Positions 5,774 to 51,212 are shown, counted from the stretch's first letter. The stretch is 52,671 nt of DNA from Patescibacteria group bacterium (GCA_052033715.1 JBPOJJ010000004.1:1-52671), one strand, 5' to 3'. Notes: generated by a model from the letters alone, not told the origin. Numbers and translations: made by a program.

Positions 5774-5802
5774 TTGACACGCTCGGATTTCAGCAGTACA
5801 CT
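5774..5802 (+). promoter_or_regulatory. Sigma70-type promoter TTGACA-17-TACACT
   Basis: Near-consensus hexamers with a 17-nt spacer upstream of the 60-aa ORF. Confidence 0.7.
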
Positions 5803-5852
5803 ATTTTCCTGTTCTTTAAACGCGTAAAGACCACCAAAACCACTAACCAACC

Positions 5853-6035
5853 ATGGGCAAGACATTCGGTTTCAGGGGCGGAGAAAGGAATAAGCGCAAC
5901 AGCAAACAGTTCCGATCTTCCAACAAGGGCAAAGGGATGGGGCCGCAGGAGAAAGGCTCGCACAAATTCCAAGGTTCCGGTAGGACCGACTTCAGTAACA
6001 TCCTGGGCGATCTGCCACGAGACCGTCGAAAATAG
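5853..6035 (+). CDS. Small basic Gly/Lys/Arg-rich protein, 60 aa
   Basis: Has its own promoter and terminator; A/C-rich leader ending in ccaaccATG. Confidence 0.65.
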   Translation: MGKTFGFRGGERNKRNSKQFRSSNKGKGMGPQEKGSHKFQGSGRTDFSNILGDLPRDRRK

Positions 6036-6069
6036 TCCCGGGCGTGGAAATTGGTCTTCGTGACCGCCA

Positions 6070-6104
6070 AAGGACCAACTCTCGGGTTGGTCCTTCGGTT
6101 TTTT
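6070..6104 (+). terminator. Intrinsic terminator
   Basis: AAGGACCAAC-tctcgg-GTTGGTCCTT followed by cggtttttt. Confidence 0.75.
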
Positions 6105-6138
6105 AGACTAAATGAGTCTGTTTGCTATACTTATGCTT

Positions 6139-6432
6139 ATGAGCGAACAACAACCTGGTAAAAATCCACACTTAAAAATTGTGCCAAAGGAGCCAAGTAA
6201 CCCGGAAGAACTCCGACGTCAAATGCAACAAGAGTCGGAAACTGAAATGGGGCCAACGTTTCGTATTACCCCCTACAATATTGACAATATTACTTTTGAC
6301 GATAATCCAGAAACAGATAACGCCATTAAAATTACCACGCTTGAACGGATGTTAGTCAATGAAGGCTTCGACGGTCCAGAAGAGCACGACATTGCAAAAA
6401 AACTTATCGAGCTTAAAAATCGTAAATTTTAA
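6139..6432 (+). CDS. Hypothetical protein, 97 aa
   Basis: Start reassigned to ATG 6139 (TGcTATACT then 7 nt); abuts the next gene. Confidence 0.65.
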   Translation: MSEQQPGKNPHLKIVPKEPSNPEELRRQMQQESETEMGPTFRITPYNIDNITFDDNPETDNAIKITTLERMLVNEGFDGPEEHDIAKKLIELKNRKF

Positions 6433-8136
6433 ATGCTCAAGAACGAAATCAAAACTTTCTTCAAGGGCGATGTCGAAGATTCTTCGGATACTTTAGAGCG
6501 CTATAGTCACGACTACAGTATTTTTGAAGTTAAACCTGAACTTGTTGTTTTCCCAAAAGACGCGGAGGATATCAAAAATCTTGTTAAGTTTTTAAATAAA
6601 AAAAGGGAAGAGGAAGGCTACGTTTATCTTTCTTTGACTCCTCGCGGTGCTGGCACAGACATGACTGGCGGACCGCTAAATGATTCTATTATTATGGACA
6701 CGTCGCGATACATGGGCGGCGTTTTGGAAATAAAGAAACAAAAACTTGGCAAACAAAAGTCTCCGACAGGACATGATTTTGAAATAAGCGGCCTGGCACG
6801 AGCATTGCCCGGAACTTTCTATCGAGATTTTGAAAAAGAAACCCTGAAAGGGGGTCTAATCATGCCTTGTTATCCAGCCTCACGGGAACTCGCCACAATT
6901 GGCGGAATGGTCGCGAACAACGGGGCGGGGGAGAAGACTCTCAAATACGGTCAGAACAAAGATTTTGTAAAATCTCTCAAAGTTGTTTTGGACGACGGGG
7001 AAGAATACGTAATTGAGCCACTATCGCGTGCCGCACTCGAAGCCATAATTTTGGAGAAGAATCGCTTGGCCGAGATTTATCAAAAAACTTGGGAACTGAT
7101 CAAGAGAAATCTCGATGAAATCCGCGCCGCCAAGCCCAAGACGACCAAGAACTCTTCAGGCTACATGCTTTGGGATGTGTGGGATGTTGGTAATGAAATT
7201 TTCAATCCAATACCGATGTTCGTCGGTGCCCAGGGAACAACCGGGATTATCACCGAAATTACTTACAAACTAGTTGAGAGAGAGACCGATTCGACCCTTC
7301 TTGTCGTTTTTTTGAAAGATTTAAAAACTATTCCGGCTTTGACCAAGGCATTACTCGAAAATGATATCGAAACTCTAGAAATCTACGACGATCACACGCT
7401 TAAGTTTGCTGTAAAATTTTTCAAAAGCTTTTTAAAAGAAAAGGGTGTTTGGGGTTCGATCAAATACGCTTGGCAATTCTTACCAGAATTCCTCATGGTG
7501 CTATCTGGCGGTATGCCCAAAATTATTATTTTGGCTGAATTTGTCTCAAACGACACCTCTGGAATTGCCAGGGAAGCGCGAGTGGCTCAAGACAAGATTG
7601 CCAGATTCCATTTGAGAACTCGATTAACAAAAACTCCACAAGAGCGCGACAAATATTTTGCCATCCGACGCGATAGTTTCAAATTACTTTCAGATCACTC
7701 AAAGGGTCTTCGTACAGCGCCGTTTATTGACGACATTGTTGTACCGGTTGATAAATTGCCCGAGTATTGGCCAGAACTTACGGCCGTTCTAGACGAACAC
7801 AACATTCTCTATACGATTGCGGGACACTTAGGTAATGGTAATTTGCACGTTATACCTTTGATGGATTTTAATGATTCAAAAACCAAGGATTATATTGTTG
7901 AAATCTCCAATAAAATTTATCCGCTCGTTCGAAAATATGGTGGCTCAATGACCGCCGAGCATAACGACGGGCTTGTCCGCACGCCTTTCGTTGAAATAAT
8001 GTTTGGGCAAAAGATCGTTCAAATTTTCCGAGAATTCAAAGACATCGTCGATCCACACAAGATGTTTAACCCGAAGAAAAAAGTTGGCGCAACCCTTGAA
8101 GACTTTTCAAATCACATAATTCGTCCGAAAAAATAA
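6433..8136 (+). CDS. FAD-binding oxidoreductase (GlcD/D-lactate dehydrogenase-like), no Fe-S C-terminal domain
   Basis: TPRGAGTDMTGG, ATIGGMVANN, GAQGTTGII, GHLGNGNLH, AEHNDG and DP-KMFNP motifs. Confidence 0.88.
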   Translation: MLKNEIKTFFKGDVEDSSDTLERYSHDYSIFEVKPELVVFPKDAEDIKNLVKFLNKKREEEGYVYLSLTPRGAGTDMTGGPLNDSIIMDTSRYMGGVLEIKKQKLGKQKSPTGHDFEISGLARALPGTFYRDFEKETLKGGLIMPCYPASRELATIGGMVANNGAGEKTLKYGQNKDFVKSLKVVLDDGEEYVIEPLSRAALEAIILEKNRLAEIYQKTWELIKRNLDEIRAAKPKTTKNSSGYMLWDVWDVGNEIFNPIPMFVGAQGTTGIITEITYKLVERETDSTLLVVFLKDLKTIPALTKALLENDIETLEIYDDHTLKFAVKFFKSFLKEKGVWGSIKYAWQFLPEFLMVLSGGMPKIIILAEFVSNDTSGIAREARVAQDKIARFHLRTRLTKTPQERDKYFAIRRDSFKLLSDHSKGLRTAPFIDDIVVPVDKLPEYWPELTAVLDEHNILYTIAGHLGNGNLHVIPLMDFNDSKTKDYIVEISNKIYPLVRKYGGSMTAEHNDGLVRTPFVEIMFGQKIVQIFREFKDIVDPHKMFNPKKKVGATLEDFSNHIIRPKK

Positions 8137-8276
8137 AACTTTTCCAAGACAAGCCGTCATGCTCTTGTCTTGCAACATCTTTCGAATATCGTGAGCAATT
8201 ATTTTACTCCCGCATCCTCACTTATTGTAATAAAATTTTCTCTGATCCGTCTAAGTTTATGTAGGGAGAAAATTCT

Positions 8277-8378
8277 ATGAACCACGAAGAAAACATAAAA
8301 CTTCATAAAGCTGAAAAGGTCATGTCGACAGTACTAATTATTGCCCTGTCTTGCGTTTTGGTCGTCTTTTCTATATAA
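8277..8378 (+). CDS. Putative 33-aa single-TM peptide (MNHEENIKLHKAEKVMSTVLIIALSCVLVVFSI)
   Basis: Hand-translated; AGGGAG SD upstream; 3' end overlaps the rplY promoter. Confidence 0.4.
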   Translation: MNHEENIKLHKAEKVMSTVLIIALSCVLVVFSI

Positions 8379-8379: not shown

Positions 8380-8387
8380 CCTGCCGT

Positions 8388-15025: not shown

Positions 15026-16531
15026 ATGAAAGAAGTTGATCAATTAGTTGCTAGTCTAAAATCAAAAATTGAAGGGGTGTCTCTGAAAGTTTCTTCCGAA
15101 GAAGTCGGAACGGTTGTTTCTGTTTCAGATGGTATTGCGCGCATAGCCGGACTTCCGACGGCTCAAGCCTCGGAGCTTCTTTCGTTTGAATCTGGCGCCA
15201 CCGGCCTTGCTCTCAACCTCGAAGAAGATTTCATTGGAGCCATTATCTTGGGCGAATTCAAGGGCGTCAAAGAGGGTGAGTCAGTCACGAGGACCAAAGA
15301 AATCCTTTCTATTCCAATAGGTAAGGGGATAGTCGGTCGTGTGGTCAACGCTCTCGGTGTTGCTATCGATGGCAAGGGAGATATCAAAACAGAAAAGAAA
15401 GTTTTGGTAGAAAAGGTAGCTCCGGGTGTTATGACTCGTGAGCCAGTTAACCAACCACTTCAAACCGGTATAAAAGCAATAGATGCCATGATTCCAATCG
15501 GCCGCGGTCAGCGTGAACTTATTATCGGCGATCGTCAGACCGGTAAAACCGCAATTGCTATCGATACAATTTTGAACCAGGCAGGTGAAAACATTATCTG
15601 CATATACGTCGCCATCGGCCAGAAACAGTCCAAAGTCGCTCGACTCGTATCGCGACTAGCTGAAGCCGGAGCGATGGATTACACTATCGTTGTTTCTGCG
15701 CCAGCGTCCGACTCTCCAGCCATGCTTTATCTAGCGCCTTATACCGGAGTCGCCATTGCCGAATATTTTATGGACAAGGGCCAAGACGTTCTCATCGTTT
15801 ACGATGATCTTTCTAAACATGCCGTCGCATATCGTGAAATCTCACTTTTGCTTCGACGTCCGCCGGGCCGCGAGGCGTATCCGGGAGACGTTTTCTATTT
15901 GCACTCAAGACTTCTCGAACGCGCTTGCCGCAGAAATGAAAAGTCAGGCGGCGGATCAATCACCGCGCTTCCAATCATCGAAACTCAGGGCGGTGACGTG
16001 TCTGGTTATATTCCGACAAACGTTATTTCGATTACGGACGGACAGATTTTCCTCGAAACAAGTCTCTTCTTCAAGGGTGTTCGTCCTGCAATCAACGCCG
16101 GACTATCAGTGTCGCGAGTCGGTGGATCAGCTCAGATAAAATCCATGAAGAAAAACGCTGGAACATTGAAACTTGCCATGGCACAGTATCGCGAACTTGA
16201 ATCTTTCGCCCAGTTTGACTCAGACCTCGATCCAGAGACGAAAAAAGTCATTGAGCGTGGTAAGAGAGTGACGGAACTTCTCAAACAAGGACAATATTCA
16301 CCGCTTCCAGTCGCGATGCAGGTTGTCTCGATTGTCGCTATCAACTCCGGATTATTCGATGCCTACGAAGTGTCAGAAATTTCGAGCGTTGAAAAAGAAC
16401 TTCATCAATATATGAAATCGTCTCAGGCCAAACTTTTAGAATCCATTAAAAATGATTGGAATGACGACATCAAAGCCGAACTCACAAAGGCACTAGAAAG
16501 TTTCAAGAAGAGTAATACAAAGAAAAAATAA
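15026..16531 (+). CDS. atpA: ATP synthase F1 subunit alpha
   Basis: [23 protein letters not shown] and ITDGQIFL motifs. Confidence 0.98.
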
Positions 16532-16534
16532 TTT

Positions 16535-17425
16535 ATGGGAGCAGATACCAAAGCCATTAGGCAAAAAATGAAATCGATCGGGAATATCAAGAAAATCACC
16601 AAAACAATGGAGATGGTATCGGTCGCGAAAATGAAAAAGGGAACTGAGATGGCCAACCGTGGACGCGCATATTCCAAATACGCCCTCGAGCTCGTTTCTC
16701 ATATTGCCGCCATGCCAGAGATCACACATCCGCTTTTGGCGCGCGAAGCCCTAGAGGGTCGCGAACTTGTCATCGTTATCTCATCGAACAAAGGCTTAGC
16801 CGGATCCTACAACACAAATATTTCCAAAGCTTTGTCTTTGTATACAAAAAATAAATCTGAAAATATCGACTGCATAACCCTCGGTAAGCAATCAGAAAAG
16901 TCAGCTCGCCGAAATAAGCTCAACATCGTAGCAAGTTTCATCACTTTCTCCGAGAAAAGCTCGTCCGATGAATTTCTAGTAATCCGTGACATGATTGTCG
17001 AAAAATATCTAAGCGGTGAATACGTCAAAGTCTCCATCCTTTTTACTGAATTTAAAAACGCCACAACTTACAAGCCATATCTAATGCAACTTCTCCCCGT
17101 CGCGCCGGAAGTTTACAAAAACGTCTTGCTCGAAGAAGAAGCCGGAACGTTCAAAGAAGAAAAGCTGGTTGATTACAAATTTGAACCAAGTGAAGGGGAA
17201 GTTTTAGCCCAAATTATCCCGCAAATTATCGCCACCGCCATTTATCATTCGTTCGTCGAATCGGTCGCTTCTGAACACTCTGCCCGAATGTTTGCGATGA
17301 AAAACGCGAACGACAATGCCGGCGAAATCCTTGATGACCTGACCCTCTTTTATAACCAAGCCCGCCAATCCGCCATCACCCAAGAGATTTCAGAAATTGT
17401 CGGAGGTGCAGCTGCCTTAAGTTAA
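16535..17425 (+). CDS. atpG: ATP synthase F1 subunit gamma
   Basis: KITKTMEMVS and SEHSARMFAMKNA...RQSAITQEI motifs. Confidence 0.97.
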   Translation: MGADTKAIRQKMKSIGNIKKITKTMEMVSVAKMKKGTEMANRGRAYSKYALELVSHIAAMPEITHPLLAREALEGRELVIVISSNKGLAGSYNTNISKALSLYTKNKSENIDCITLGKQSEKSARRNKLNIVASFITFSEKSSSDEFLVIRDMIVEKYLSGEYVKVSILFTEFKNATTYKPYLMQLLPVAPEVYKNVLLEEEAGTFKEEKLVDYKFEPSEGEVLAQIIPQIIATAIYHSFVESVASEHSARMFAMKNANDNAGEILDDLTLFYNQARQSAITQEISEIVGGAAALS

Positions 17426-17440
17426 CATTATCAGTATTAG

Positions 17441-18838
<1,398 letters not shown>

Positions 18839-19278: not shown

Positions 19279-19303
19279 AAAAAAGCCCGGGTGACCGGGC
19301 TTT
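19279..19303. terminator. Bidirectional terminator
   Basis: AAAGCCCGG-gtga-CCGGGCTTT with an A6 run on the left (U tract on the minus strand). Confidence 0.7.
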
Positions 19304-19322
19304 CCTGCTTTCGGCGGATGTT

Positions 19323-19484
19323 CTAGTCCTTGGTGTCATAAATCACCTTAATGGCTATGCCACTGACCAACGACCAGATTCCTACGATTAGGATGTATTG
19401 GTCGTGTTCAATGAGACCAAGGAGGCAAACGAACGTCCCTGCGAGAGAAAGAAGTGTCGCTAGGAATTGAAAGAAGTTCTTCAT
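19323..19484 (-). CDS. Small two-TM membrane protein, 53 aa (MKNFFQFLATLLSLAGTFVCLLGLIEHDQYILIVGIWSLVSGIAIKVIYDTKD)
   Basis: Hand-translated; has its own promoter and terminator. Confidence 0.7.
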   Translation of the reverse strand: MKNFFQFLATLLSLAGTFVCLLGLIEHDQYILIVGIWSLVSGIAIKVIYDTKD

Positions 19485-19505
19485 CTGAGGTTTTCTTTTT
19501 TTGTA

Positions 19506-19541
19506 TTTATACTAGACAAACCTTTAAAAGTCAAGTACTAT
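19506..19541. promoter_or_regulatory. Overlapping divergent promoters: minus TTGACT-17-TATAAA and plus TAGACA-17-TACTAT (rsmI)
   Basis: Both spacers counted as 17 nt; the plus -10 box ends 7 nt before the rsmI ATG. Confidence 0.65.
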
Positions 19542-19548
19542 AAACTTT

Positions 19549-20229
19549 ATGAAAAACGGCATTTTATACGTTATAGCCACTCCTATCGGAAATCTGGGGG
19601 ATATGACCATCCGAGCCATAGAAACGCTTAAAAGCGTAGATTTGGTGCTCTGTGAGGACACCAGAGTGACCAAACACCTCCTAAAACACTATGAAATCGA
19701 GGCTGCTACCATGAGCTACCACGCCAACAGCACGATCCAAAAACATGACAAAATTATCGAACTTTTACGTGAAGGAAAAAATCTAGCCCTGGTCTCGGAC
19801 GCCGGCACACCGACCATTTCTGATCCCGGGGTAATGCTCATCCAAATTATTAAAAAAGAATTACCAGACGTTAAAGTTATTGCAATTCCTGGAGCCTCGG
19901 CTCTGACTGCCGCGCTATCGATCTCTGGAATCCCAAGCCCACAATTTACGTTCTACGGATTCCTGCCGCACAAGAAGGGCAGGGAAACAATCTTTAAAGA
20001 AATCTCTGTAAGCGAACGAACTTCTGTCTTCTACGAATCACCTCATCGTATCGAAAAGACTCTTGAGTCGCTAAACAAACACCTACCGGAGACGAAGAAG
20101 GTCGTCCTGGCTCGAGAACTGACAAAACTTTTTGAAGAAATCGTCGAGGGATCGGCGACCGAAGTCCTAAACTATTTCAAATCCAATCCGGACAAAGTCC
20201 GAGGTGAGTTCGTCGTCATAATTTCCTAA
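19549..20229 (+). CDS. rsmI: 16S rRNA (cytidine1402-2'-O)-methyltransferase
   Basis: LYVIATPIGNLGD, CEDTRVT, VSDAGTPTISDPG, FYESPHR and ARELTK motifs. Confidence 0.96.
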   Translation: MKNGILYVIATPIGNLGDMTIRAIETLKSVDLVLCEDTRVTKHLLKHYEIEAATMSYHANSTIQKHDKIIELLREGKNLALVSDAGTPTISDPGVMLIQIIKKELPDVKVIAIPGASALTAALSISGIPSPQFTFYGFLPHKKGRETIFKEISVSERTSVFYESPHRIEKTLESLNKHLPETKKVVLARELTKLFEEIVEGSATEVLNYFKSNPDKVRGEFVVIIS

Positions 20230-25405: not shown

Positions 25406-25433
25406 TTGACTTATCTTACGCAAACCGTAAAGT
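25406..25433 (+). promoter_or_regulatory. Promoter TTGACT-16-TAAAGT
   Basis: 20 nt upstream of ATG 25454. Confidence 0.55.
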
Positions 25434-25453
25434 TGGTCTCAAAAGGTACACTC

Positions 25454-26095
25454 ATGGTAAAACAATCAGCTCAGAAAGACTGGCTGATCTTGCCAGTCCA
25501 CAACCATCCGACACTCAACCGTTGGACGAGAAAGAAGCTTCTTCGACGCAAGCTGATGACCGTTGGAGATGTAGTGAAGATCTGCCTGACCAAGGATGGG
25601 TACTTCATACCGATCCGATCTCGCGGTTTCGGCACTGCAATCAATTACGATATCGCCAAGCTTCTGTACCGCACTGGTTTTCTTACCAAGGACAAGCTTG
25701 CGAAAGTAAGCACTCCGGACTGGGTTCTTCGCAAGCCAACCGATAAAGAAATCGGTGCGGCGGGTAAGAAACTCATTTCAAAGTTCACGTGGTCTGAAGC
25801 AGCGCACATCGTCATCAAGCACACCTGCAACATCGGCAACAGAGGTTTACCATGCACTCCCCGACTCAGAACGTGGAAAGGAATCACTGTGGGTGATGTG
25901 GTGAAGCGATTCATCAGGATGAACAATGAAGGGAAACCGTACTTTTGGAGAACAGGACATCTCGGTTCCCATTGGTACTCCCGAGACGAAGCACTTATTG
26001 ACGCCCTCCAAGAATGTTTGCCGGAGATCGAAAGATTTCTATACGACAACCATTTTCTGGAGACTACCACAAAGCCCGAAAAGGAAGAGCCTTAG
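25454..26095 (+). CDS. Orphan protein with two repeats resembling the RNA polymerase alpha C-terminal domain
   Basis: Duplicated TVGDVVK motif; alignment by eye to alpha-CTD. Confidence 0.6.
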   Translation: MVKQSAQKDWLILPVHNHPTLNRWTRKKLLRRKLMTVGDVVKICLTKDGYFIPIRSRGFGTAINYDIAKLLYRTGFLTKDKLAKVSTPDWVLRKPTDKEIGAAGKKLISKFTWSEAAHIVIKHTCNIGNRGLPCTPRLRTWKGITVGDVVKRFIRMNNEGKPYFWRTGHLGSHWYSRDEALIDALQECLPEIERFLYDNHFLETTTKPEKEEP

Positions 26096-26109
26096 CGGGC
26101 TTTTCCTTT
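26080..26109 (+). terminator. Intrinsic terminator
   Basis: AAAGGAAGAGCC-ttagcg-GGCTTTTCCTTT. Confidence 0.65.
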
Positions 26110-26112: not shown

Positions 26113-26141
26113 TTGACACCCCACATTCTATAACGTATAAA
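26113..26141 (+). promoter_or_regulatory. Promoter TTGACA-17-TATAAA
   Basis: Near consensus; directly after the preceding terminator. Confidence 0.75.
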
Positions 26142-26199
26142 TAAACCGAATTCGGTCATTAGCGACCAGTCCCTTCCCACAAAACAAAACCCCCTTCAC

Positions 26200-26607
26200 A
26201 TGAAAAAGTTCCTCATCGCATTCTTGATCTTGGCTGGAGCCGTGGTCATGATACTTACTTTCTTCAACGCCGCCAATGCGTTTGCATTAGAGGGAGCAGG
26301 CGATGACGTGCAACGCATTCCGAAAGTCTACGCACTCATGGCGACTACGCTCGCTTGCCTTGGATGGATAACAGCTAAAGGGACATGGTCTCGCTTGGCA
26401 GTATTACTCGCCATCGCCATAGTGGCCATGGCGCCCATCAAAATGTCCTGGAGATTCTATCCAAAAAACGATGGTGGCATCTCCCTACTAGATTGGATGA
26501 CCATCGCCAACTCTTTGGCTGGAGCACTCCTCGGCATCGCTACCTACTACGTGATAAAGTACTTATTCGCGAAGGACGCGAAGAACTGTTCAGCCGTGAT
26601 GGACTAA
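26200..26607 (+). CDS. Orphan membrane protein (signal peptide plus about 3 TMs)
   Basis: 135 aa, hydrophobic; has its own promoter and terminator. Confidence 0.75.
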   Translation: MKKFLIAFLILAGAVVMILTFFNAANAFALEGAGDDVQRIPKVYALMATTLACLGWITAKGTWSRLAVLLAIAIVAMAPIKMSWRFYPKNDGGISLLDWMTIANSLAGALLGIATYYVIKYLFAKDAKNCSAVMD

Positions 26608-26629
26608 GAACATACCACGACAACGTGGA

Positions 26630-26662
26630 AGCCCCGGCGCGATGCCGGGGCTCCTTCTTTTT
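26630..26662 (+). terminator. Intrinsic terminator
   Basis: AGCCCCGGC-gcgat-GCCGGGGCT followed by ccttcttttt. Confidence 0.75.
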
Positions 26663-27920: not shown

Positions 27921-28181
27921 TCATTTAATCGCACCTTCAGTTCTCAACAGTTTCTCTTTGGCCGCTTCTCCGCCCCGATTATAGTTACCAATTCGTCCGT
28001 CAGAGCGAATCACCCGATGACACGGCACATCTGATCGAAAATTCTGCGCCATGACCGTACCAACCACACGCGAAGCGCCCGGGTTGCCGGCTTTGGTTGC
28101 AACTTGTTTGTATGTCATCGTCTTCCCTCTCGGGATTTTGCGCACAACGTCTAGAACTTTTTCGATAAAAGTCTTCTTCAT
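27921..28181 (-). CDS. MGMT/Ogt-family alkylguanine DNA-binding/methyltransferase domain protein
   Basis: IPRGKTMTY, SRVVGT and VPCHRVIRSDG motifs. Confidence 0.9.
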   Translation of the reverse strand: MKKTFIEKVLDVVRKIPRGKTMTYKQVATKAGNPGASRVVGTVMAQNFRSDVPCHRVIRSDGRIGNYNRGGEAAKEKLLRTEGAIK

Positions 28182-29558: not shown

Positions 29559-29587
29559 TTGACATATGCAGTGTATTGTGGTACTCT
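29559..29587 (+). promoter_or_regulatory. Promoter TTGACA-17-TACTCT
   Basis: 23 nt upstream of ATG 29611. Confidence 0.7.
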
Positions 29588-29610
29588 ATACACATAAAGC
29601 ACCCAACGCC

Positions 29611-29760
29611 ATGAAAAAGCACCTCATCCTCTTCGCCGGCACGATCATCCTGTTCCTCGCTTCCTGCGCCTCCAGCATGGGTACCCACCACCGCGCCGGT
29701 TCCGACCGGAACCCCAGCGCCTCCCAGAACCCCCGGAGCCCCTGCTACTACAAGCGCTGA
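29611..29760 (+). CDS. Small putative lipoprotein, 49 aa (lipobox LASC)
   Basis: MKKHLILFAGTIILFLAS-C; 96/150 nt G+C (64%); has its own promoter and terminator. Confidence 0.72.
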   Translation: MKKHLILFAGTIILFLASCASSMGTHHRAGSDRNPSASQNPRSPCYYKR

Positions 29761-29785
29761 TCACCGACAAGGTGACGAAGAGCAT

Positions 29786-29820
29786 CTAGGCCATCCTCCA
29801 AGGGTGGCCTAGTCTTTTTT
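29786..29820. terminator. Intrinsic terminator
   Basis: CTAGGCCATCC-tccaa-GGGTGGCCTAG followed by tctttttt. Confidence 0.78.
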
Positions 29821-36762: not shown

Positions 36763-37986
36763 TTATAGAGTAAATTGTCCGTCCTGATAAATTATTTTTT
36801 CTTTGCCGCCAGGTAGATATGCCGTCACTGTTCTGTCTGTTGTGGAAATTATATCCGTATGAACTGATGAGTCATTGTAACCGAGTTTGTCCCAAGTTGC
36901 TTTTGAAACTTTCGATGGATCACCTTTGTAACAATCGTGATAGGATTTTCCAAGCGCGAGATGAGTGTTACCAAAACGTCCGCCAATATTTTCATCGTAC
37001 AAAGTCTCAGCCATAAATTTCGTGATTTCGGAAAATCGTCTATCGGTCAGAGAATATTCACCCACCTTGTCGGCATTTTTTGTCGCAATCATTTCTTTGA
37101 GCACGTTGTGATTTTTTGTCGCAAAACTTTTGACGACTTTGCCATCTTTAAACCACAGCTCTATGCCGGTAATAAGGTTGCCGTAAATATAGAGCGGCTG
37201 ATTGAATTTGATCCAGCCTTCAGTTCCCCGCCAATCAGGACTGGTGAAAATTTCAAAACTCGGTACGTTGTGACCGGTACCTCCCACCCATTTACTCTTT
37301 GGTGATAGTTTTATCCATAGATCAGCGTCAGCTCCGACAACATGTAATTTCTCGATCGACAGATCGTTCAACTTCTTCACTGAACTCTGAATCATTTGTG
37401 AAGTCGCGCGCCATTTCTTCTTGGGATCTGGATAATTCAAGTAACAGGCTTTTATGATTTGATCCCAGTATTCTTTCAAAGTCATTTGAGCTTCTTTGGC
37501 CATAGCTTCTGTTCCATAGAGAGCAAGCGTCCAAGTAAATTTACCGGCGCTCTCTTTCTTGCTACGCAAATCAAAGACGAATTTCGTGGCTTCTCCACGA
37601 GCCATAATCTTCTTTGGATCAACGCCTTCCAGAGGATTTTTCATCGATTCGCTTATGACAAATATCTGATGATCAATGTCTTTGACCATACCCACCATCG
37701 CGTTTTTGTTTACGTATTTGATTTGCTCATCGCTCGCTAGATTGTAAAACTCTTTGGAGAAATTAAATTCTTTAGTAGCGTCGGGAAGAAAAAACATTAC
37801 CGGATTACCACCTGATCTCAGAACGGCATTGTGAATTTCAAATAGTAGTGGCTTGGTAGATTCTTCGCCGATAATTCTAACCGTTTCGCCTTTCTTTATC
37901 CCCTCTTTGGTGCCAAGAGCAAAATTAACCAACACATCCGCGTACTTTTCGAGAATTTTTTTAGAAGGTTTATAGATTTTTTTCAT
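36763..37986 (-). CDS. M29 aminopeptidase (AmpS/aminopeptidase II)
   Basis: NVPSFEIFTSP, GEYSLTD, LYDENIG..HLALG and VHTD motifs. Confidence 0.92.
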   Translation of the reverse strand: MKKIYKPSKKILEKYADVLVNFALGTKEGIKKGETVRIIGEESTKPLLFEIHNAVLRSGGNPVMFFLPDATKEFNFSKEFYNLASDEQIKYVNKNAMVGMVKDIDHQIFVISESMKNPLEGVDPKKIMARGEATKFVFDLRSKKESAGKFTWTLALYGTEAMAKEAQMTLKEYWDQIIKACYLNYPDPKKKWRATSQMIQSSVKKLNDLSIEKLHVVGADADLWIKLSPKSKWVGGTGHNVPSFEIFTSPDWRGTEGWIKFNQPLYIYGNLITGIELWFKDGKVVKSFATKNHNVLKEMIATKNADKVGEYSLTDRRFSEITKFMAETLYDENIGGRFGNTHLALGKSYHDCYKGDPSKVSKATWDKLGYNDSSVHTDIISTTDRTVTAYLPGGKEKIIYQDGQFTL

Positions 37987-38005: not shown

Positions 38006-38731
38006 TTAGTTTAATGGCAACTCACCCCTTAGACCCGCCCAGAAATTTCTAGCCCGCTCAAGGATGTCTGAATTTCTTTTAAAATGTTCTTCGTGGGCCT
38101 TTTCTACGGTTGTTCTTAATCGTGCGCTTATTTCTTCGAAACGTAGTTCTCCTGTTTTTCGCACTCCATCGATTCTATCCGCTAGATTTGTTTTTGTTTC
38201 TAGCACATGAGCTCTTTTGAGTTCACTGATTATATTCTCAAGAAAAAATACTCTCTCAACGTAAATACCATACAATTTCTCATGGAGCTCTTTTATCTTT
38301 CCTTCCGGAACACCGTTGTCGGCTAAGGTATCCAGAATTGATTTCATTTCGTCATGCTCAGGCGTGTAATATTTTTCAACCCTGTCAGATTGACCATCCA
38401 GTGTTTCCATTACATTTTTGTGTAAACGATCCATAAAATCGCGCTGTTCAGCAAACGCCTGATCAATCATGTCTTTGTCTACAAATTCTCTTGCCCCCAT
38501 AGCGGCCGACTGTTCTTCGGCAACTTTATCTAAATCTTTTTTATAAACCTCCAAAGAATTATCCAGATCGACTATGAATTTTTGGTACGATTCTTCTTGG
38601 CCTTCGAATCTGAAACGATTGTCCGTTAGAATTTCAATAAACTTGGCTTTGATTTCCTCACCACCCTTTTTGAGCTCTTTGAGCCAGCCAGTTGGGTCTT
38701 GTTCTGGATTATTAGGCACTGATTCATTCAT
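38006..38731 (-). CDS. Hypothetical alpha-helical charged protein
   Basis: 241-aa ORF filling the gap between aspS and the aminopeptidase. Confidence 0.75.
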   Translation of the reverse strand: MNESVPNNPEQDPTGWLKELKKGGEEIKAKFIEILTDNRFRFEGQEESYQKFIVDLDNSLEVYKKDLDKVAEEQSAAMGAREFVDKDMIDQAFAEQRDFMDRLHKNVMETLDGQSDRVEKYYTPEHDEMKSILDTLADNGVPEGKIKELHEKLYGIYVERVFFLENIISELKRAHVLETKTNLADRIDGVRKTGELRFEEISARLRTTVEKAHEEHFKRNSDILERARNFWAGLRGELPLN

Positions 38732-40194: not shown

Positions 40195-40216
40195 AAAAAG
40201 GCCCGGTGTCCGGGCC
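40195..40216 (-). terminator. Intrinsic terminator
   Basis: GGCCCGG-aca-CCGGGCC-TTTTT on the minus strand. Confidence 0.7.
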
Positions 40217-40236
40217 CTCTTCTCAACGTTGTGGTG

Positions 40237-40908
40237 CTAATGATCATAAGGGAAGGTCTGCCGATGACGAGGCTTCCGATTTCCAAAACCCTTACCTCGT
40301 GGACTCTTACGCCTCGGATCTTTTCGATCTCTGTCACGCGCCTTCCTTTCAGCAAAGGCATATGCGCGCATTTCTTCCGACAGACCGCTATCGATACTTG
40401 CGGTTGGACCTTTCGCGCGTCCATGCAGGGCGTCGTTGAGGCAGGCGTACATCAAACCCTTACCGCCACGGCCCGGCACAATATGCATGAACTGACGACA
40501 CTCGGGATCCGGACAAGGTTCCGAACCCTGGACCACCTGCTTGCACTTCTTGGCCAACATTAACAGGTTGTCTGTGAAGTTCTTGGTGCGACGCAGCACT
40601 TTGCCCCAATAAGCAACGTAATTGTCACTATTGCGTACAATGAGGACGAATCCGTTGTCATGCTCCTTGTAGCTGTTCGTAGCCTTCACGAAGCTGGTCC
40701 AGACCCTTACCGTATAGAGGTTAAGGGTGTACCGAAAACCCTCCTCTCGTCCAGGGTCCACGGACTTGGACACGAGACCATATCGGTATCGGTCGGCCCG
40801 GCTCTCCCTTGGCAGAATAGGCAGGAATTCCTCCGCGACCATGCTTTTTTCCAGACAAAGGAAGTCCTGCGCGTCTGGCTTTGTCTTGGGTGCAGTTTTC
40901 GTCTCCAC
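40237..40908 (-). CDS. Orphan protein with a putative zinc ribbon and a basic tail
   Basis: CPDPEC..M....G.GG...Y.C...H motif; GTG start; terminator downstream. Confidence 0.7.
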   Translation of the reverse strand: METKTAPKTKPDAQDFLCLEKSMVAEEFLPILPRESRADRYRYGLVSKSVDPGREEGFRYTLNLYTVRVWTSFVKATNSYKEHDNGFVLIVRNSDNYVAYWGKVLRRTKNFTDNLLMLAKKCKQVVQGSEPCPDPECRQFMHIVPGRGGKGLMYACLNDALHGRAKGPTASIDSGLSEEMRAYAFAERKARDRDRKDPRRKSPRGKGFGNRKPRHRQTFPYDH

Positions 40909-40974: not shown

Positions 40975-41001
40975 AGTAAAGACCGGCGCAAAACGCCGGT
41001 C
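40975..41001 (-). terminator. Intrinsic terminator
   Basis: GACCGGCG-ttttg-CGCCGGTC-TTTACT on the minus strand. Confidence 0.7.
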
Positions 41002-41027
41002 TCCACTCTTCCAAAGAACGCTGTCGA

Positions 41028-41453
41028 TCAGGCGGCCCAATTCAGTGGTATCCGTCGATCGACCAAGGTGGGGTTCTCTGCTCGGCAGAGTATCTCCCAA
41101 AGGTCAACGAACTCGTCGTCTTCGTGCCAGTCTCGCCGGTCACGCAGGATCTGCCACCCAGACCATATCGAAGCGATGGTTCGGATGTCCTGATAGCCAC
41201 GCTCACAGAGCAAAGTAGCTACGTGGTCGGCGCATTGGTCCAAACCGTTCAGGCCGGACATCTTGCCGAAGCCTTGCCTCACATATACGGTTGCGAAGCG
41301 GATTGTGAGTTCGCCCACATCTTTTCCGTCACGTATCAGAGGCTTTCCTTGGTCGATCAAGGACTTCCTCCGTTCGACGAAGGCGTCGAGGATACGGTTC
41401 AGTGGTCCTGTCGCAGAAATGGGTATTGTCGGAAGTTCCTGGTTACTGGTCAT
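41028..41453 (-). CDS. Orphan protein, 141 aa, weakly alpha-CTD-like
   Basis: Has its own promoter and terminator; start reassigned to MTSNQ. Confidence 0.65.
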   Translation of the reverse strand: MTSNQELPTIPISATGPLNRILDAFVERRKSLIDQGKPLIRDGKDVGELTIRFATVYVRQGFGKMSGLNGLDQCADHVATLLCERGYQDIRTIASIWSGWQILRDRRDWHEDDEFVDLWEILCRAENPTLVDRRIPLNWAA

Positions 41454-41472
41454 GGTGAAGAGGTTTGTCCAT

Positions 41473-41501
41473 AAAATAACACAACTCACTTCCCTGGTCA
41501 A
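41473..41501 (-). promoter_or_regulatory. Promoter TTGACC-17-TATTTT with extended TG
   Basis: Spacer counted as 17 nt; 19 nt upstream of ATG 41453. Confidence 0.55.
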
Positions 41502-41513: not shown

Positions 41514-41548
41514 AAAGAGGGCCCCGGCAAATGCCAGGGCCCCTTTTC
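41514..41548 (-). terminator. Probable intrinsic terminator
   Basis: GC-rich imperfect inverted repeat (GGGCCC/GGCA arms) with a U-rich tail on the minus strand. Confidence 0.5.
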
Positions 41549-41590
41549 TTCGCTACCCATCTCATGGATGGGCCGTGCATGCCTAGTTGC

Positions 41591-42226
41591 CTAGGCTTCC
41601 ACCTCAATGCCGTTCTGCTCGAGAACGGTCTCGGCGGACTTCACCTCGGAGGCCATGTAATTGGCGACCGCGCGGTAGTGGCTCTCGAGCGCCTGCCAGG
41701 TCGTGGCGGCATTGCGAGTGCCGATCGCGTAGTAGACCTCCTCGCTGATCTCCTTCTTCTCGTCGGAGATGTCGAGGAAGGCCTCGAGCTGGTCCACGTT
41801 GGTCATCGGGATGCGCCCACCTTGGATGGCCTTGCTCAAGGCGTCGGTGATGTTGTGGCTCACCGTCTTGTCCTCGAGACCGTCCGTCATGCGCTCCAGT
41901 TCAGTGAAGACCACATGGATCGTGCTGTCCTTCGGCAGCTTGACCAGGTCCTCCGTCGTGGTTGCCGTGATAGCCTCCACCAGATTGGTCGGCAGGCCGG
42001 TCTTCGGGTACATCAGGAGGTTCTTCATGAGCTGGTCATCGAAGGCCTTCACTTTGATGCCCTTGCTCTTCAGCTCTTCCGCCAACCGCTTCGATCCGCG
42101 GATCACCAGGCCCTTGTCGCTTGCGCGCTTGATCTGGTCGATCGCGTTCTCGGAGAGGCTCACGCCGAGCACCAGGAGGTTCATACCGACGAACTTCACA
42201 TTACCTACGCTTGCTTTCTTCCGCAT
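41591..42226 (-). CDS. GC-rich orphan protein, 211 aa
   Basis: Strong G/C-ending codon bias; has its own promoter and terminator. Confidence 0.8.
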   Translation of the reverse strand: MRKKASVGNVKFVGMNLLVLGVSLSENAIDQIKRASDKGLVIRGSKRLAEELKSKGIKVKAFDDQLMKNLLMYPKTGLPTNLVEAITATTTEDLVKLPKDSTIHVVFTELERMTDGLEDKTVSHNITDALSKAIQGGRIPMTNVDQLEAFLDISDEKKEISEEVYYAIGTRNAATTWQALESHYRAVANYMASEVKSAETVLEQNGIEVEA

Positions 42227-42274
42227 TGGAACTGTTGTTTTTGGGCCTTTGTTTGGTAGGGCCCGAGGTTTAGG

Positions 42275-42302
42275 ATAATAGCACGGTTTAAAAACCTGTC
42301 AA
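42275..42302 (-). promoter_or_regulatory. Promoter TTGACA-16-(TGc)TATTAT
   Basis: Upstream of the 211-aa orphan. Confidence 0.65.
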
Positions 42303-42968: not shown

Positions 42969-43078
42969 GATTTTATTTTAACACATTATAAGGACAACCC
43001 AACGAAGCTTGGAATAAAATTGTTTTTATGTAAAATATCTCCGAACAGCTCACGAATCACAACCAAAACCGCAACGCC

Positions 43079-44368
43079 ATGCCTAGCAACTTGATGGATT
43101 TACTGATACCGGCGATCTTCGTCCTGGGATATGCCGCTATCGCCTTTGAGCATCCACTCCGGATAAACAAGGCCGCCTCTGCTCTACTGACAGGATTCTT
43201 GGTGTGGACATTCTGCGCCATCAACATGGGGGGCGAACTTGCCTCCAAACACCTGGTAGAACACATGGGCGACATTTCAAGCATCCTGTTCTTCTTGCTG
43301 GGTGCCATGACTATAGTAGAGATGATCGACGTTCATGACGGTTTTCAGGTTCTTACTGACCGGACCAACGTCCGAAACAAGATCAAGCTCTACTGGTTTG
43401 TCGGCCTTGTCACCTTTTTCCTCTCAGCGGTGCTAGACAACATGACCACGGCAATCGTCATGTCAGCACTGCTTCGAAAGCTGATCAAGAATAAAGAGGA
43501 TCTGTGGAAACTGGCCGGCGTAGTCATCCTCGCGGCAAACGCTGGTGGTGCTTGGTCACCGATTGGTGACGTGACCACCATCATGCTGTGGATCGGTGGA
43601 CAGGTAAGCACGTGGAACATCATCCTGAAGCTTCTCTTGCCAAGCCTGGCCTGCCTAGTCGTACCGCTCTTGTGGTTGACCGCCACATCCCGAGGCAACC
43701 TTGAGCTAAACGCAAAAGAAGCGAGCGGGTTGAATAAGAACGGACTCAGTAAACGAGAAAAGTACCTAGTGCTTTCTCTCGGACTCGGAGCCCTACTTTT
43801 CGTGCCGGTGTTCAAGTCGTACACTGATCTGCCGCCGTTTGTTGGACTACTTGGTGGTTTGGGAATCATGTGGATCACCACGGAACTACTCCACCAACGT
43901 CATCCCAACTTTAGCGAAACCCGCCACCAGTTAGTGGTTACCTCGATCTTGCGGAGAGTGGACGTTCCGAGCGTCATCTTCTTCCTAGGAATCCTCATGG
44001 CTGTTGCCGGACTAGAAACCGCCGGATATCTCGAGAGCCTAGCAAGTTTCCTCGATAGCCGGATCGACAACGTCTATGCGGTCAATGTTCTGATTGGTGG
44101 TTTATCGGCCGTCGTAGACAATGTTCCGCTCGTCGCAGCATCTATGGGAATGTACCCTCTCGATGTTTACCCGACAGACCACATCTTTTGGGAGCTTTTG
44201 GCGCTCTGTGCTGGAACAGGTGGAAGCATGCTCATTATTGGTTCAGCTGCTGGTGTCGCCGTTATGGGCATCTTGGGGATTGACTTCGTGTGGTACATGA
44301 AGAAAATCGGACCCCTGGCTATCCTTGGCTACTTGGCTGGGATCGCGACATTTTGGTTGATGAACTGA
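43079..44368 (+). CDS. nhaD: NhaD-family Na+/H+ antiporter
   Basis: FEHPLRINKAASALL, LSAVLDNMTT, GGAWSPIGDVTT, SAVVDNVPLVA and GTGGSMLIIGSAAG motifs. Confidence 0.92.
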   Translation: MPSNLMDLLIPAIFVLGYAAIAFEHPLRINKAASALLTGFLVWTFCAINMGGELASKHLVEHMGDISSILFFLLGAMTIVEMIDVHDGFQVLTDRTNVRNKIKLYWFVGLVTFFLSAVLDNMTTAIVMSALLRKLIKNKEDLWKLAGVVILAANAGGAWSPIGDVTTIMLWIGGQVSTWNIILKLLLPSLACLVVPLLWLTATSRGNLELNAKEASGLNKNGLSKREKYLVLSLGLGALLFVPVFKSYTDLPPFVGLLGGLGIMWITTELLHQRHPNFSETRHQLVVTSILRRVDVPSVIFFLGILMAVAGLETAGYLESLASFLDSRIDNVYAVNVLIGGLSAVVDNVPLVAASMGMYPLDVYPTDHIFWELLALCAGTGGSMLIIGSAAGVAVMGILGIDFVWYMKKIGPLAILGYLAGIATFWLMN

Positions 44369-45864: not shown

Positions 45865-45894
45865 CGCCTAATTTTAGCAGAAATTTTTTTATAT

Positions 45895-46025
45895 AAAAAT
45901 GACAAGAGCCGGAGGACGTCCGGCTCTTGGGAGGGTGTTCCTTCTCCACGGCTTCCTGTTCACCTGAACAAGGCTTGGAATGCAGCTTCCATGACGTGTG
46001 TGGGTTGGTGGATGATGAGCAATGT
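45895..46025 (-). ncRNA. Candidate sRNA of about 130 nt, optionally encoding the 10-aa peptide MEAAFQALFR (45960..45992)
   Basis: Promoter at 46032-46060; terminator CAAGAGCCGGA/TCCGGCTCTTG at 45903-45929; internal hairpins. Confidence 0.55.
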
Positions 46026-46031
46026 GAGAAC

Positions 46032-46060
46032 ATCCTAACATGGATAAAAATATTTGTCAA
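46032..46060 (-). promoter_or_regulatory. Promoter TTGACA-17-(TGt)TAGGAT
   Basis: Near consensus with a 17-nt spacer. Confidence 0.7.
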
Positions 46061-49539: not shown

Positions 49540-49551
49540 TAGAATAGTGGG

Positions 49552-50946
49552 ATGCTAAAGATTTACAACACCCTGACGAAAAAAGAAGAAGTCGTAGAAC
49601 CGATTACTCCAGGCAAAATCGGAATCTATACATGTGGTCCTACCGTCTATGACTATGTGACGATTGGCAATTGGCGGACCTACACGCTCGGCGATCTCGT
49701 GAATCGCGTACTTCGTTATGGCGGAACACCAACTAACTACATCATGAACATTACCGATGTCGGACATCTCACAGGTGACAACTTGGGCGATGCAGATACC
49801 GGAGAGGACAGAATGGAAAAAGCGAAAAAACGCGAAGGCAAAACTGCTTGGGATATAGCCCTATTTTACGCGAACGATTTCCTCGACGGATACAAGAAAC
49901 TCAATCTCACGGAGCCTGAGAAATTCGTCAAAGCAACCGATCATATCGCTGAACAGATTCGTCTGGTGCAAAAGCTCGTGGACAAAGGTTTAGCTTATAC
50001 GATATCCGACGGAATATATTTTGATACAAAAGCTTATGAATCTGCTGGATTCATCTATGGCGAACTCTCGAATTTGGAAAGCATCAAAGAAGGCGCGCGC
50101 GTGGAAATAAATCCAGAGAAGAAAAATCCGCGAGACTTTGCGCTCTGGAAATTCAGTCCAAAAGGCGAGAAACGCGATATGGAATGGGAATCGCCGTGGG
50201 GCATTGGTTTCCCCGGCTGGCACATCGAATGTTCGGCCATGAGTGAGAAATATCTCGGCGAGCAATTTGATATTCATCTTGGTGGTGAAGATCTCAAGAG
50301 TACGCATCATCCAAATGAAATCGCTCAGTCACAAGGAGCGTCTGGCAAAAAACCTTTTGTAAAATATTGGATTCATGGAGCATTTCTACAAGTAGCTGGC
50401 GGCAAGATGGGCAAAAGTCTTGGCAACGCTTATAACCTCCACGACATCGAGAAAAAAGGTTTCTCCCCAACCACGCTTCGATATTTTTATTTAACGGCGA
50501 ATTACGGATCTCACCTGAACTTCACTTGGGAAAGTCTGGAGGCTGCCCAAAACGCGCTAAAAAAACTCAAAAATCTATTCCTAGATCTGGGAACTGACAT
50601 TGGAGCCGTGAGTGCGCATTACAGACAAGAATTTACCGAAGCCCTCGAAGATAACTTGAACACCCCGGAAGCATTAGCGGTTCTGTGGACTCTGGCGCAT
50701 GACAAAGAAACTCTTCTCGCCGACAAGAAAGCTACACTTCTCGACTTCGACAAAGTATTGGGGCTTGGAATGGACACATGGGCCCATGATGAAATCCCGG
50801 CCGAAGTCATCGATCTCGCTCGCTCTCGCAACGCCGCTCGCCTTTCCAAAGACTGGGCAAAATCCGACGAACTCCGCGATAAAATAAAATCTCTCGGTTA
50901 TGAAATCAAGGATTTGGGTGAAGATTTTGAGGTTAGGAAAACATGA
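49552..50946 (+). CDS. cysS: Cysteine-tRNA ligase
   Basis: YTCGPTVY, DFALWK, PGWHIECS, HHPNE and KMGKS motifs. Confidence 0.97.
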   Translation: MLKIYNTLTKKEEVVEPITPGKIGIYTCGPTVYDYVTIGNWRTYTLGDLVNRVLRYGGTPTNYIMNITDVGHLTGDNLGDADTGEDRMEKAKKREGKTAWDIALFYANDFLDGYKKLNLTEPEKFVKATDHIAEQIRLVQKLVDKGLAYTISDGIYFDTKAYESAGFIYGELSNLESIKEGARVEINPEKKNPRDFALWKFSPKGEKRDMEWESPWGIGFPGWHIECSAMSEKYLGEQFDIHLGGEDLKSTHHPNEIAQSQGASGKKPFVKYWIHGAFLQVAGGKMGKSLGNAYNLHDIEKKGFSPTTLRYFYLTANYGSHLNFTWESLEAAQNALKKLKNLFLDLGTDIGAVSAHYRQEFTEALEDNLNTPEALAVLWTLAHDKETLLADKKATLLDFDKVLGLGMDTWAHDEIPAEVIDLARSRNAARLSKDWAKSDELRDKIKSLGYEIKDLGEDFEVRKT

Positions 50947-50975
50947 TTGACCAAAAAGCATTTTGGGAGTACAAA
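50947..50975 (+). promoter_or_regulatory. Promoter TTGACC-17-TACAAA
   Basis: Begins directly after the cysS stop; spacer counted as 17 nt. Confidence 0.55.
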
Positions 50976-51001
50976 GATAGTAAACCAATCTGAAGCCCAC
51001 C

Positions 51002-51166
51002 ATGCGATCCAAGTTTCACCACCAGACAAGTGAGTCGGGAACCTCGGATGACCCAGAAAACTACGACCCAGATCGGGGTTGGGGTTGGGGTCTTCTGAAC
51101 GGCGGAGGCATCTTCCTCCTATTATGCCTAGCGGCCTATTTGTTCTACCGCGCCTACTCTGGCTAG
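51002..51166 (+). CDS. Small C-terminally anchored membrane protein, 54 aa
   Basis: Hand-translated MRSKFHHQTSESGTSDDPENYDPDRGWGWGLLNGGGIFLLLCLAAYLFYRAYSG; has its own promoter and terminator. Confidence 0.68.
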   Translation: MRSKFHHQTSESGTSDDPENYDPDRGWGWGLLNGGGIFLLLCLAAYLFYRAYSG

Positions 51167-51169
51167 GCC

Positions 51170-51212
51170 AAACGAGTGTTTTTCTTACCGGAGGCACTCG
51201 TTTTGATTTTTT
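51170..51212 (+). terminator. Intrinsic terminator
   Basis: AAACGAGTG...CACTCGTTT followed by a T-rich tail. Confidence 0.6.

Follow-up and report, generated by a model that had tools for sequence, protein, structure and literature searches.

Small species-specific genes in self-contained expression cassettes appear to occupy fixed slots in a Patescibacteria genome and look like a chromosomal counterpart of phage morons

The units in the window and the genome that carries them

We analyzed a contig of 52,671 nt from a Patescibacteria group bacterium (GCA_052033715.1 JBPOJJ010000004.1:1-52671), here called the window, in which a sequence-only reading had described at least nine recurrent units between positions 5774 and 51212, each consisting of a promoter, an A/C-rich leader, an orphan gene, and a terminator. 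The window is contig C11 of G000, a 606-kb genome of 44% GC in 12 contigs that is 96.8% complete. The AtpD protein of G000 places it in the Patescibacteria (Candidate Phyla Radiation, CPR), the nearest public metagenome-assembled genome (89% identity) being labelled Ca. Saccharibacteria and further near matches Minisyncoccia or Patescibacteria. Genomes of this group are tiny and highly syntenic and hold many unannotated small genes, and how they gain and test genes is poorly understood. The comparisons reported here suggest that the units belong to a set of about forty small, GC-rich, species-specific genes that look like a chromosomal counterpart of phage morons rather than a new mobile element.

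Syntenic stretches of 60 kb were compared from five relatives and of 40 kb from G009, covering three genera of the family, and genome-wide comparisons were made with the complete congener G004 and with 481 kb of G005. All relatives are different species, at about 80% nucleotide identity or less, G005 being the closest (about 80%). We also used L138, a syntenic 26-kb contig, and L142, a contig of the Logan assembly SRR21677132. Open reading frames (ORFs) were considered orphan when they had no tblastn match in G004.

Direct reading of the sequence bore out the general anatomy of the units and located all nine promoters where they had been placed (5774+, 19534-, 25406+, 26113+, 29559+, 41501-, 42302-, 46060-, and 50947+). 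At eight of the nine sites, a TTGAC-16/18-TAnnn(T/A) promoter is followed by a short A/C-rich leader, an ORF missing from congeners, and a hairpin terminator. The features expected of a sigma-70-type transcription unit are present in the sequence, namely a TTGACA-like -35 box, a spacer of 16-18 nt, a TAnnnT -10 box, and, after the stop codon, a G+C-rich hairpin followed by a T-run, with which each unit closes. In most units the ORF stops about 20 nt upstream of the hairpin. The flanking genes are of the atp, murG/ftsW/mraY, gltX, and trpS loci, and the units are arranged as follows:

5774-6104, plus strand: unit 1; promoter TTGACA-17-TACACT (5774-5802), 50-nt A/C-rich leader, basic ORF of 60 amino acids (aa; 5853-6035), terminator (6070-6104)
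19279-19534, minus strand: unit 2; promoter (19506-19534), 21-nt leader, 53-aa ORF with two transmembrane (TM) segments (19323-19484), hairpin terminator common to the end of the atp operon
25406-26109, plus strand: unit 3; promoter, 20-nt leader, 213-aa ORF (25454-26095), terminator
26113-26662, plus strand: unit 4; promoter (26113-26141), palindrome ACCGAATTCGGT (26145-26156), ORF for a 135-aa membrane protein (26200-26607; two predicted TM segments), terminator (26628-26662)
29559-29820, plus strand: unit 5; promoter, 23-nt leader, 49-aa lipoprotein-like ORF (29611-29760; 64% GC), terminator
40975-41501, minus strand: unit 6; promoter (41473-41501), 19-nt leader, 141-aa ORF (41028-41453), terminator
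41514-42302, minus strand: unit 7; promoter (42275-42302), 48-nt leader, 211-aa ORF (41591-42226; 60% GC), terminator
45895-46060, minus strand: promoter (46032-46060) and terminator without a real ORF, the only frame being the 10-aa MEAAFQALFR
50947-51212, plus strand: unit 9; promoter 1 nt after the previous stop codon, 26-nt leader, 54-aa C-terminally anchored ORF (51002-51166), weak terminator

No usable family emerged when the cassette ORFs were scanned against Pfam and PHROG, no informative PHROG match signaled a phage, and an Rfam scan of the window found one tRNA only. Two of the nine sites do not hold an acquired orphan gene. At the slot of unit 1, G001, G002, and G004 carry DksA-like ORFs of 161-229 aa behind a homologous promoter and leader, with the same ATGGGCAAG (MGK) start, and the promoter lies at 131 versus 132 nt from the flanking gene. 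The 60-aa ORF is the decayed remnant of a resident DksA-like gene, not an acquired orphan. In the relatives, the DksA-like gene corresponding to window positions 5642-6433 has the C-terminal sequence ..NKTYGICRVTGRLISKERLR.., and in both G000 and G003 the conserved promoter and leader are followed by no more than short remnants of it. The second exception is 45895-46060. Its promoter lies at nearly the same distance from the flanking gene in G004 (86 versus 85 nt), G001 and G007 carry ORFs of 152 and 111 aa there, and the site in G000 may be either a slot that has been emptied or a gene for a small RNA. A T-box or attenuator for the downstream trpS gene was considered and rejected, as there is no Rfam match and trpS has its own leaderless promoter, TGCTAAAAT-6 nt-ATG (45865-45890).

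Promoters, terminators, and gene composition across the genome

The pattern TTGAC-N17-19-TANNNW occurs in the window no more often than expected by chance (10 matches; 10.3 +/- 3.0 expected), and what is non-random is its placement: nine of the ten matches are intergenic, in a sequence in which intergenic DNA makes up 7.9% of the bases (P = 1e-9). Over the whole genome, intergenic DNA contains the motif at 12 times the density of coding DNA. Outside conserved coding sequences (CDSs), we counted 109 TTGAC promoters in G000, of which 49 precede genes conserved in G004, 51 lie before ORFs that have no homologue in G004, and 9 have nothing downstream; conserved genes with such a promoter include rpoB, tuf, ftsZ, infC, and ribosomal protein genes. 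With orphans at about 23% of the genes, the enrichment at orphans is roughly twofold and non-exclusive, so that the promoter count proposed as a check does not single out the orphans.

The bracket of promoter plus terminator is a different matter. It is about five times commoner at orphans (25/~162) than at conserved genes (16/483; p = 5e-7), and the objection that core genes might be bracketed equally often did not hold; among TTGAC-driven genes, a terminator follows 25 of 39 orphans versus 16 of 46 conserved genes (p = 0.009). The claim that the orphan ORFs are richer in GC was also confirmed. The 39 TTGAC-driven orphans have a GC content of 0.52 and a third-codon-position GC content (GC3) of 0.60, compared to 0.465 and 0.49 in TTGAC-driven conserved genes (p = 1e-4 for GC); GC3 is 0.44 in conserved genes and 0.46 in the most conserved ones. 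The leaders of these orphans consist of 0.37 A, 0.33 C, 0.14 G, and 0.16 T, the -10 box lies 16-24 nt upstream of the ATG in 20/39, AAAC is found at +7 to +10, and CC-ATG is frequent. TM segments are not significantly enriched (20/39 orphans versus 191/483 conserved genes). A motif search at the unit boundaries within G000 found no conserved sequence before the -35 box, nor one common to the terminators.

Fixed slots with changing content

Core genes are collinear in the six relatives at 50-95% aa identity, and the cassette ORFs have no match there, which is in agreement with the proposal of a variable, lineage-specific layer at synteny breakpoints. Synteny further showed that the units are not conserved in place: the corresponding gaps are occupied by other ORFs, equipped with TTGAC promoters, short leaders, and terminators of their own, and range from 45 nt to more than 10 kb across the relatives. 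Slot 3, for instance, measures 280 nt in G001 versus 2459 nt in G000. The unit-2 slot, between atpC and a methylase gene, is empty in L138 (45 nt) versus 281 nt with the cassette in G000; its promoter is shared by G001-G005 and G007, four of which have another ORF downstream, and G001 and G007 have none that reaches 35 aa. Alternative gene content lies between the same conserved flanking genes without mobility genes.

The comparison with G004 extends this picture to the whole genome. The two genomes share 93 gaps of at least 250 nt. TTGAC promoters occur in 44 of these gaps in G000, and 40 of the 44 have one in G004 as well (Fisher test, 4e-10); of the gap DNA, only 31% can be aligned. The distances from promoter to flanking gene in G000 and G004 are often identical or nearly so (38/38, 39/39, 29/29, and 14/14 nt, in addition to the two pairs given above). 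Behind 12 of 15 such positional promoter pairs lie ORFs without detectable similarity (z-score below 3), often of another protein class. Spacer identity is 0.61 for positional orphan promoter pairs, 0.49 for random pairs, and 0.85 for core-gene promoters.

Two further differences in slot content were noticed. G005 carries about 5.9 kb of extra DNA (L098, G005:C9 4949-10816) between an 86-aa gene and an M23 peptidase gene that is absent at window positions 27921-28210. In slot 2 of G002 (L085, about 16130-18260), three tandem TTGAC-driven cassettes of 87, 76, and 92 aa are found versus one in G000, and a 21-nt core is common to two of the three terminators.

A cassette that appears to have moved as a whole unit

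Homologues of cassette 25406-26109 were found in L138 (79.7% DNA identity) and L139 (84.5%). In both, the homology sets in no more than 3 nt from the -35 box at 25406; in L138, it stops after the terminator T-run at 26109, and in L139, it continues into the adjoining promoter at 26113. The left neighbor of the cassette differs in all three genomes and the right neighbor differs in L138. Against L139, the flank is only 66% identical up to the breakpoint at the -35 box. The third-codon-position divergence of the 213-aa gene is 0.38 versus L138, in which 15 core genes range from 0.41 to 0.67, and 0.30 versus L139, in which the adjacent core genes are at 0.65-0.68. Over 17 core-gene comparisons, the range is 0.41-0.68. 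Because the flanks differ and synonymous divergence is below that of the core genes, the cassette probably moved as a whole unit and was shared more recently than the genomes diverged. Here, the proposal that units are shuffled as complete transcription units holds, with breaks at the -35 box on the left and past the T-run on the right.

The 213-aa protein has homologues at 53-85% identity, 42 invariant columns among six homologues, and an internal repeat (..TVGDVVK.. twice). Substitutions in its gene fall at codon position 3 far more often than at positions 1 and 2, the pattern of purifying selection, and because of this concentration, the ORF very probably encodes a real, constrained protein. 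AlphaFold predicted its structure with a predicted local distance difference test (pLDDT) score of 72 and a predicted template modeling (pTM) score of 0.68. A fold like that of the alpha-CTD was considered and found unsupported, with no PDB fold match at E <= 0.001.

These data bear on whether the ORFs are genes at all. The units could be noncoding RNA genes or annotation noise, their ORFs being chance frames in GC-rich DNA; the unit at 46060 without a real ORF, the long ORFs on both strands of GC-rich stretches such as 41.5-42.3 kb, and the lack of any Pfam or PHROG family would fit. The constraint and the predicted structure of the 213-aa protein argue the other way, as do the lack of Rfam matches and the regular placement of the ORFs, which in most units start 16-24 nt past the -10 box and stop shortly before the hairpin, and we regard this explanation as very improbable. 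A second possibility is de novo gene birth, in which spare or divergent promoters together with bidirectional terminators of neighboring genes transcribe spacer DNA, where ORFs arise and die as proto-genes. Four of the nine promoters do lie back-to-back with a core-gene promoter, several unit terminators also serve the neighboring gene, many ORFs are short, TM-like, or of low complexity and belong to no family, and the slot at 46060 is transcribable yet has no ORF. However, the purifying selection on the 213-aa ORF, homologues at 79-85% in distant backgrounds (unit 7, for example, has homologues at 79-82% on short metagenome contigs, as well as divergent positional counterparts in G003 and G007), and ORFs of 200-500 aa that fill their frames exactly are not expected from this process, and a GC3 of 0.60 would be hard to obtain from local spacer in a 44% GC genome. 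We give de novo birth only a small chance.

Apparent exchange of coding sequences inside a resident frame

At 26113, a different kind of change was observed. G005 shares the promoter, the leader down to the ATG, and the terminator, and its CDS encodes an unrelated 132-aa soluble protein versus the 135-aa membrane protein of G000 (global CDS alignment, z = -0.44). The promoter, leader, and terminator share about 79-84% identity with those of G005, L139, and L142, and the CDSs are unrelated to that of 26113 (in L142, those in frames other than the last); L139 carries a third CDS, of 108 aa, in this frame. In L142 (200-2270), four or more single-gene cassettes stand in tandem, with the orthologue of the 135-aa gene as the last member, and the members are split by a repeated terminator-promoter junction of about 85 nt, GAAGCCCCGG..CCGGGGCTTCTTCTTTTC-TTGACCC..CGTATAAATAACCCGAA. 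Three of the four cassettes use copies of one promoter element; this element of about 45 nt, that of 26113, was found in seven copies or loci with at least six unrelated CDSs. Directly after the 26113 -10 box lies the perfect 12-bp palindrome ACCGAATTCGGT, which is kept in G005, and the homology to L139 breaks at its center, ACCGAA|TTCGGT, making it a candidate operator or recombination point. A scan of Joint Genome Institute (JGI) metagenome contigs with the 26113 promoter pattern gave two chance matches only. The idea that the 26113 promoter is a hybrid of copies A and D of L142 was dropped, as indels among the seven copies make it ambiguous.

We then located breakpoints genome-wide against G005 for 24 orphan units with a locatable flank. 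Four keep the CDS, 5-7 keep promoter and leader and not the CDS, and 15 differ from the -35 box on; the 5-7 are counted among about 20 informative units. In eight pairs with promoter and leader kept, six proteins are unrelated (z < 1.1), one is a diverged orthologue (C12_3476, z 9.5), and one is borderline (C2_68026, z 2.8). Left breakpoints fall at -37 to +6 of the -35 box in eight cases and within a few nucleotides of the ATG in five; right breakpoints fall at the first hairpin base in five cases and 1-28 nt past the hairpin end in six. The comparisons show a fast turnover of content between species with apparent exchange breakpoints at module borders, and two likely modes of exchange: of the complete unit, with the -35 box and the T-run as its ends, or of the CDS alone inside a resident promoter/terminator frame. 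The view that units are always exchanged complete has to be given up, since in about one quarter to one third of the tested cases promoter plus leader and/or terminator stay and only the CDS differs. At least one unit, at 25406, seems to have moved between lineages, and repeated-junction arrays as in L142 and slot 2 of G002 indicate that such arrangements occur in relatives.

Positional orthologues might instead evolve in place past recognizable similarity, under relaxed or diversifying selection, with promoter and terminator constrained. Several data would agree with such hyper-divergence: the near-equal allele lengths in several slots, the spacer identity of orphan promoters above that of random pairs (p = 4e-5), the 135-aa and 211-aa ORFs, which change at codon position 1 almost as often as at position 3, the C12_3476 and C2_68026 pairs, and slot 1, which holds a decaying orthologue. 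On the other hand, alleles can be of different protein classes, such as a membrane protein with predicted TM segments versus a soluble one, slot lengths range widely (from 45 nt to over 5 kb at least), and cassette 25406 lies between different neighbors while being less diverged than core genes. Moreover, both 26113 alleles have clear homologues elsewhere (60-83%), indicating that each evolves at an ordinary rate. We consider hyper-divergence unlikely.

The breakpoints also raise the question of a dedicated site-specific exchange, in which the hairpin or the terminator-promoter junction would be an attC-like site for a recombinase acting in trans, for example the single Xer-like enzyme of the genome. 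The match of breakpoints to the -35 box and to the start and end of the hairpin, the tandem array of L142 with its repeated junction, and the break at the palindrome center in L139 would be consistent with this. The sequence-only reading had found no obvious integrase or attC, and we agree: there is no integrase in the window or near the slots, the sole PF00589 tyrosine recombinase (Xer-like) being encoded on another contig (C9:170941-171456), and no attC-like shared motif was found within G000, where the hairpins share only GC-rich stems (no attC model was run). Several kinds of breakpoint instead of one, the lack of a motif upstream of the -35 box or among the terminators, and the chance-only result of the metagenome scan further reduce this to an improbable explanation. 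A broader version, in which promoter/terminator frames serve as landing pads and hairpin- or junction-directed recombination, either integrase-independent or by an Xer-like recombinase on incoming single-stranded DNA, swaps CDSs or units in about 45 slots as a dispersed, promoter-equipped analogue of an integron, is also doubtful in our estimate.

Translation starts across the genome

The leader without a Shine-Dalgarno (SD) motif had been considered a hallmark of the units. The 16S rRNA of both G000 and G004 ends in ...GCTGCTCGTGGAATAATTCAATTT, without CCUCC; its 3' tail is GGAATAATTCAATTT compared to GGATCACCTCCTTA in Escherichia coli, and the anti-SD is missing (G000 contig C4:1-60; G004 C6:~165-275). 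Given this missing anti-SD, leaders without an SD are a trait of the lineage and not of the cassettes. Among 433 long genes of G000, only 7% have a 4-mer SD, and G drops to about 10% at positions -12 to -2 before the start; the SD-less, G-poor leader is a property of the whole genome. Sequences complementary to the 16S tail, GAATTA and AATTAT, showed no positional enrichment as an alternative SD. Before the ATG of 477 conserved genes, a TAnAAT box peaks sharply at -12 (50 genes), -13 (20), and -14 (10), and because of this peak (80/477), many core genes are probably leaderless.

Other features of the window

Three further features belong to the neighborhood of the units:

19513-19551, plus strand: leaderless promoter TAGACA-17-TACTAT opposing unit 2, separated by 7 nt from the start codon of the methylase gene (19549-20229)
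40195-40908, minus strand: GC-rich 223-aa ORF (40237-40908) with a terminator and without a TTGAC promoter; weak syntenic homologue in G002 (30%)
43000-44368, plus strand: gene of an NhaD/CitMHS-type transporter; TTGGAA..TGTAAAAT promoter, A/C-rich leader with GCC-ATG at its end

The leaderless promoter and the unit-2 promoter interleave their -35 and -10 boxes over 19506-19541. The last two features had been described as partly fitting the units; the terminator at 40195 and the A/C-rich leader of the transporter gene fit, and neither feature has a promoter of the TTGAC type. The transporter gene is accessory, being present only in G007 among the syntenic relatives. In another variable slot without a TTGAC promoter, an M29 aminopeptidase gene (36763-37986), found only in G003 among the syntenic relatives, is adjacent to a 241-aa ORF (38006-38731) that has no homologue.

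A model of cassette turnover

We consider that the units are autonomous monocistronic expression cassettes in which a streamlined, SD-less bacterium of the CPR keeps its flexible genome, in about 45 fixed slots at operon boundaries, a reading to which we give a rough probability of 0.6. As judged from the sequence, the housekeeping sigma factor would transcribe each unit from its near-consensus -35/-10 promoter, translation would start independently of an SD on the short, unstructured A/C-rich leader, and the intrinsic terminator would insulate the unit from its neighbors. Turnover may proceed by DNA uptake from related populations, for which G000 encodes ComEC, and by recombination, which tandem arrays with a recurring terminator-promoter junction would facilitate; of the insertions, selection would retain only those that are expressed, insulated, and harmless where they land. 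A gene pool that recombines separately would be in line with the raised GC3, although this is speculative.

Some observations speak against this model. The TTGAC promoter itself is ordinary, about half of those assigned to a gene (49/100) serving core genes. Near-equal allele lengths (49/49, 135/132, 362/367, 80/83, and 53/54 aa) could mean extreme divergence in place, and the low third-position divergence of cassette 25406 could partly be a constraint of codon bias. Genes were called by a home-made caller, and the orphan class is defined by one complete congener, with further congeners covered in part. Finally, an all-against-all search found no repeated promoter or terminator families within G000, and repeat-mediated recombination is for this reason documented in relatives only.

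The architecture suggested by the model is that of fixed, insulated, strongly promoted slots combined with a fast-changing, compositionally distinct pool of small, often membrane-anchored proteins. If true in populations, it would provide a concrete and testable model of flexible-genome dynamics in reduced genomes, mark candidate genes for host interaction or phage defense, and supply natural expression sites that could be used to engineer those few Patescibacteria that can be cultivated. It also corrects the impression that SD-less leaders and TTGAC promoters are marks of foreign genes, as both are properties of the whole genome.

Comparison with known systems

Minimal mobile elements are recombination hotspots of naturally competent bacteria such as Neisseria. 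The slots described here resemble them in carrying different genes between the same conserved flanking genes, in lacking a transposase or integrase, and in the presence of ComEC in the genome. They differ in that the breakpoints lie at the -35 box, the ATG, or the hairpin and not inside conserved flanking genes; at 25406, moreover, no tract extends into the flank, which is far more diverged than the cassette. Natural competence has been demonstrated in Saccharibacteria according to two reports (PMC10633639, PMC10187176), and horizontal gene transfer and genomic islands have been documented in Patescibacteria in a study that does not mention promoters, cassettes, or hotspots (PMC12455944).

On the side of translation, loss of the anti-SD motif has been reported for a subgroup of Parcubacteria (PMC9297842), and the 16S tail without CCUCC, the genome-wide absence of SD motifs, and the TAnAAT box at -12 of core genes are like the SD-independent or leaderless translation of such bacteria. 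In contrast, the cassette genes mostly have an A/C-rich leader of 10-20 nt, and for this difference between cassette and core leaders we found no description in the searchable literature.

With integron cassettes, the units share small, mostly orphan single genes without a mobility gene inside and, in L142, a tandem array with a repeated hairpin-bearing junction. Unlike integrons, there is no IntI, attI, or recognizable attC, the units are scattered over about 45 slots instead of forming one array, and each has its own TTGAC promoter, whereas integron cassettes rely on Pc.

Phage morons, a concept of Hendrix and Juhala, are the closest parallel. As in morons, a single extra gene lies between genes that are adjacent in relatives (45 nt in L138 versus 281 nt in G000), it has a predicted promoter and terminator of its own, in the form of non-randomly placed sequence motifs, its GC content deviates (0.52, GC3 0.60, versus 0.44 and 0.44), different units occupy one hotspot, and one unit occurs in different backgrounds. 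The differences are that the units are found within the chromosome, among atp, mur, and tRNA-synthetase operons, and not in phages or prophages, with no match to phage families, and that in some slots promoter and terminator stay and the CDS alone changes. Because they are chromosomal, the units are not morons proper. Compared with the moron criteria as summarized in PMC2920897, they agree in insertion and GC content and, as predicted from the motifs, in transcriptional control, which makes three of four, and would act like morons without being morons.

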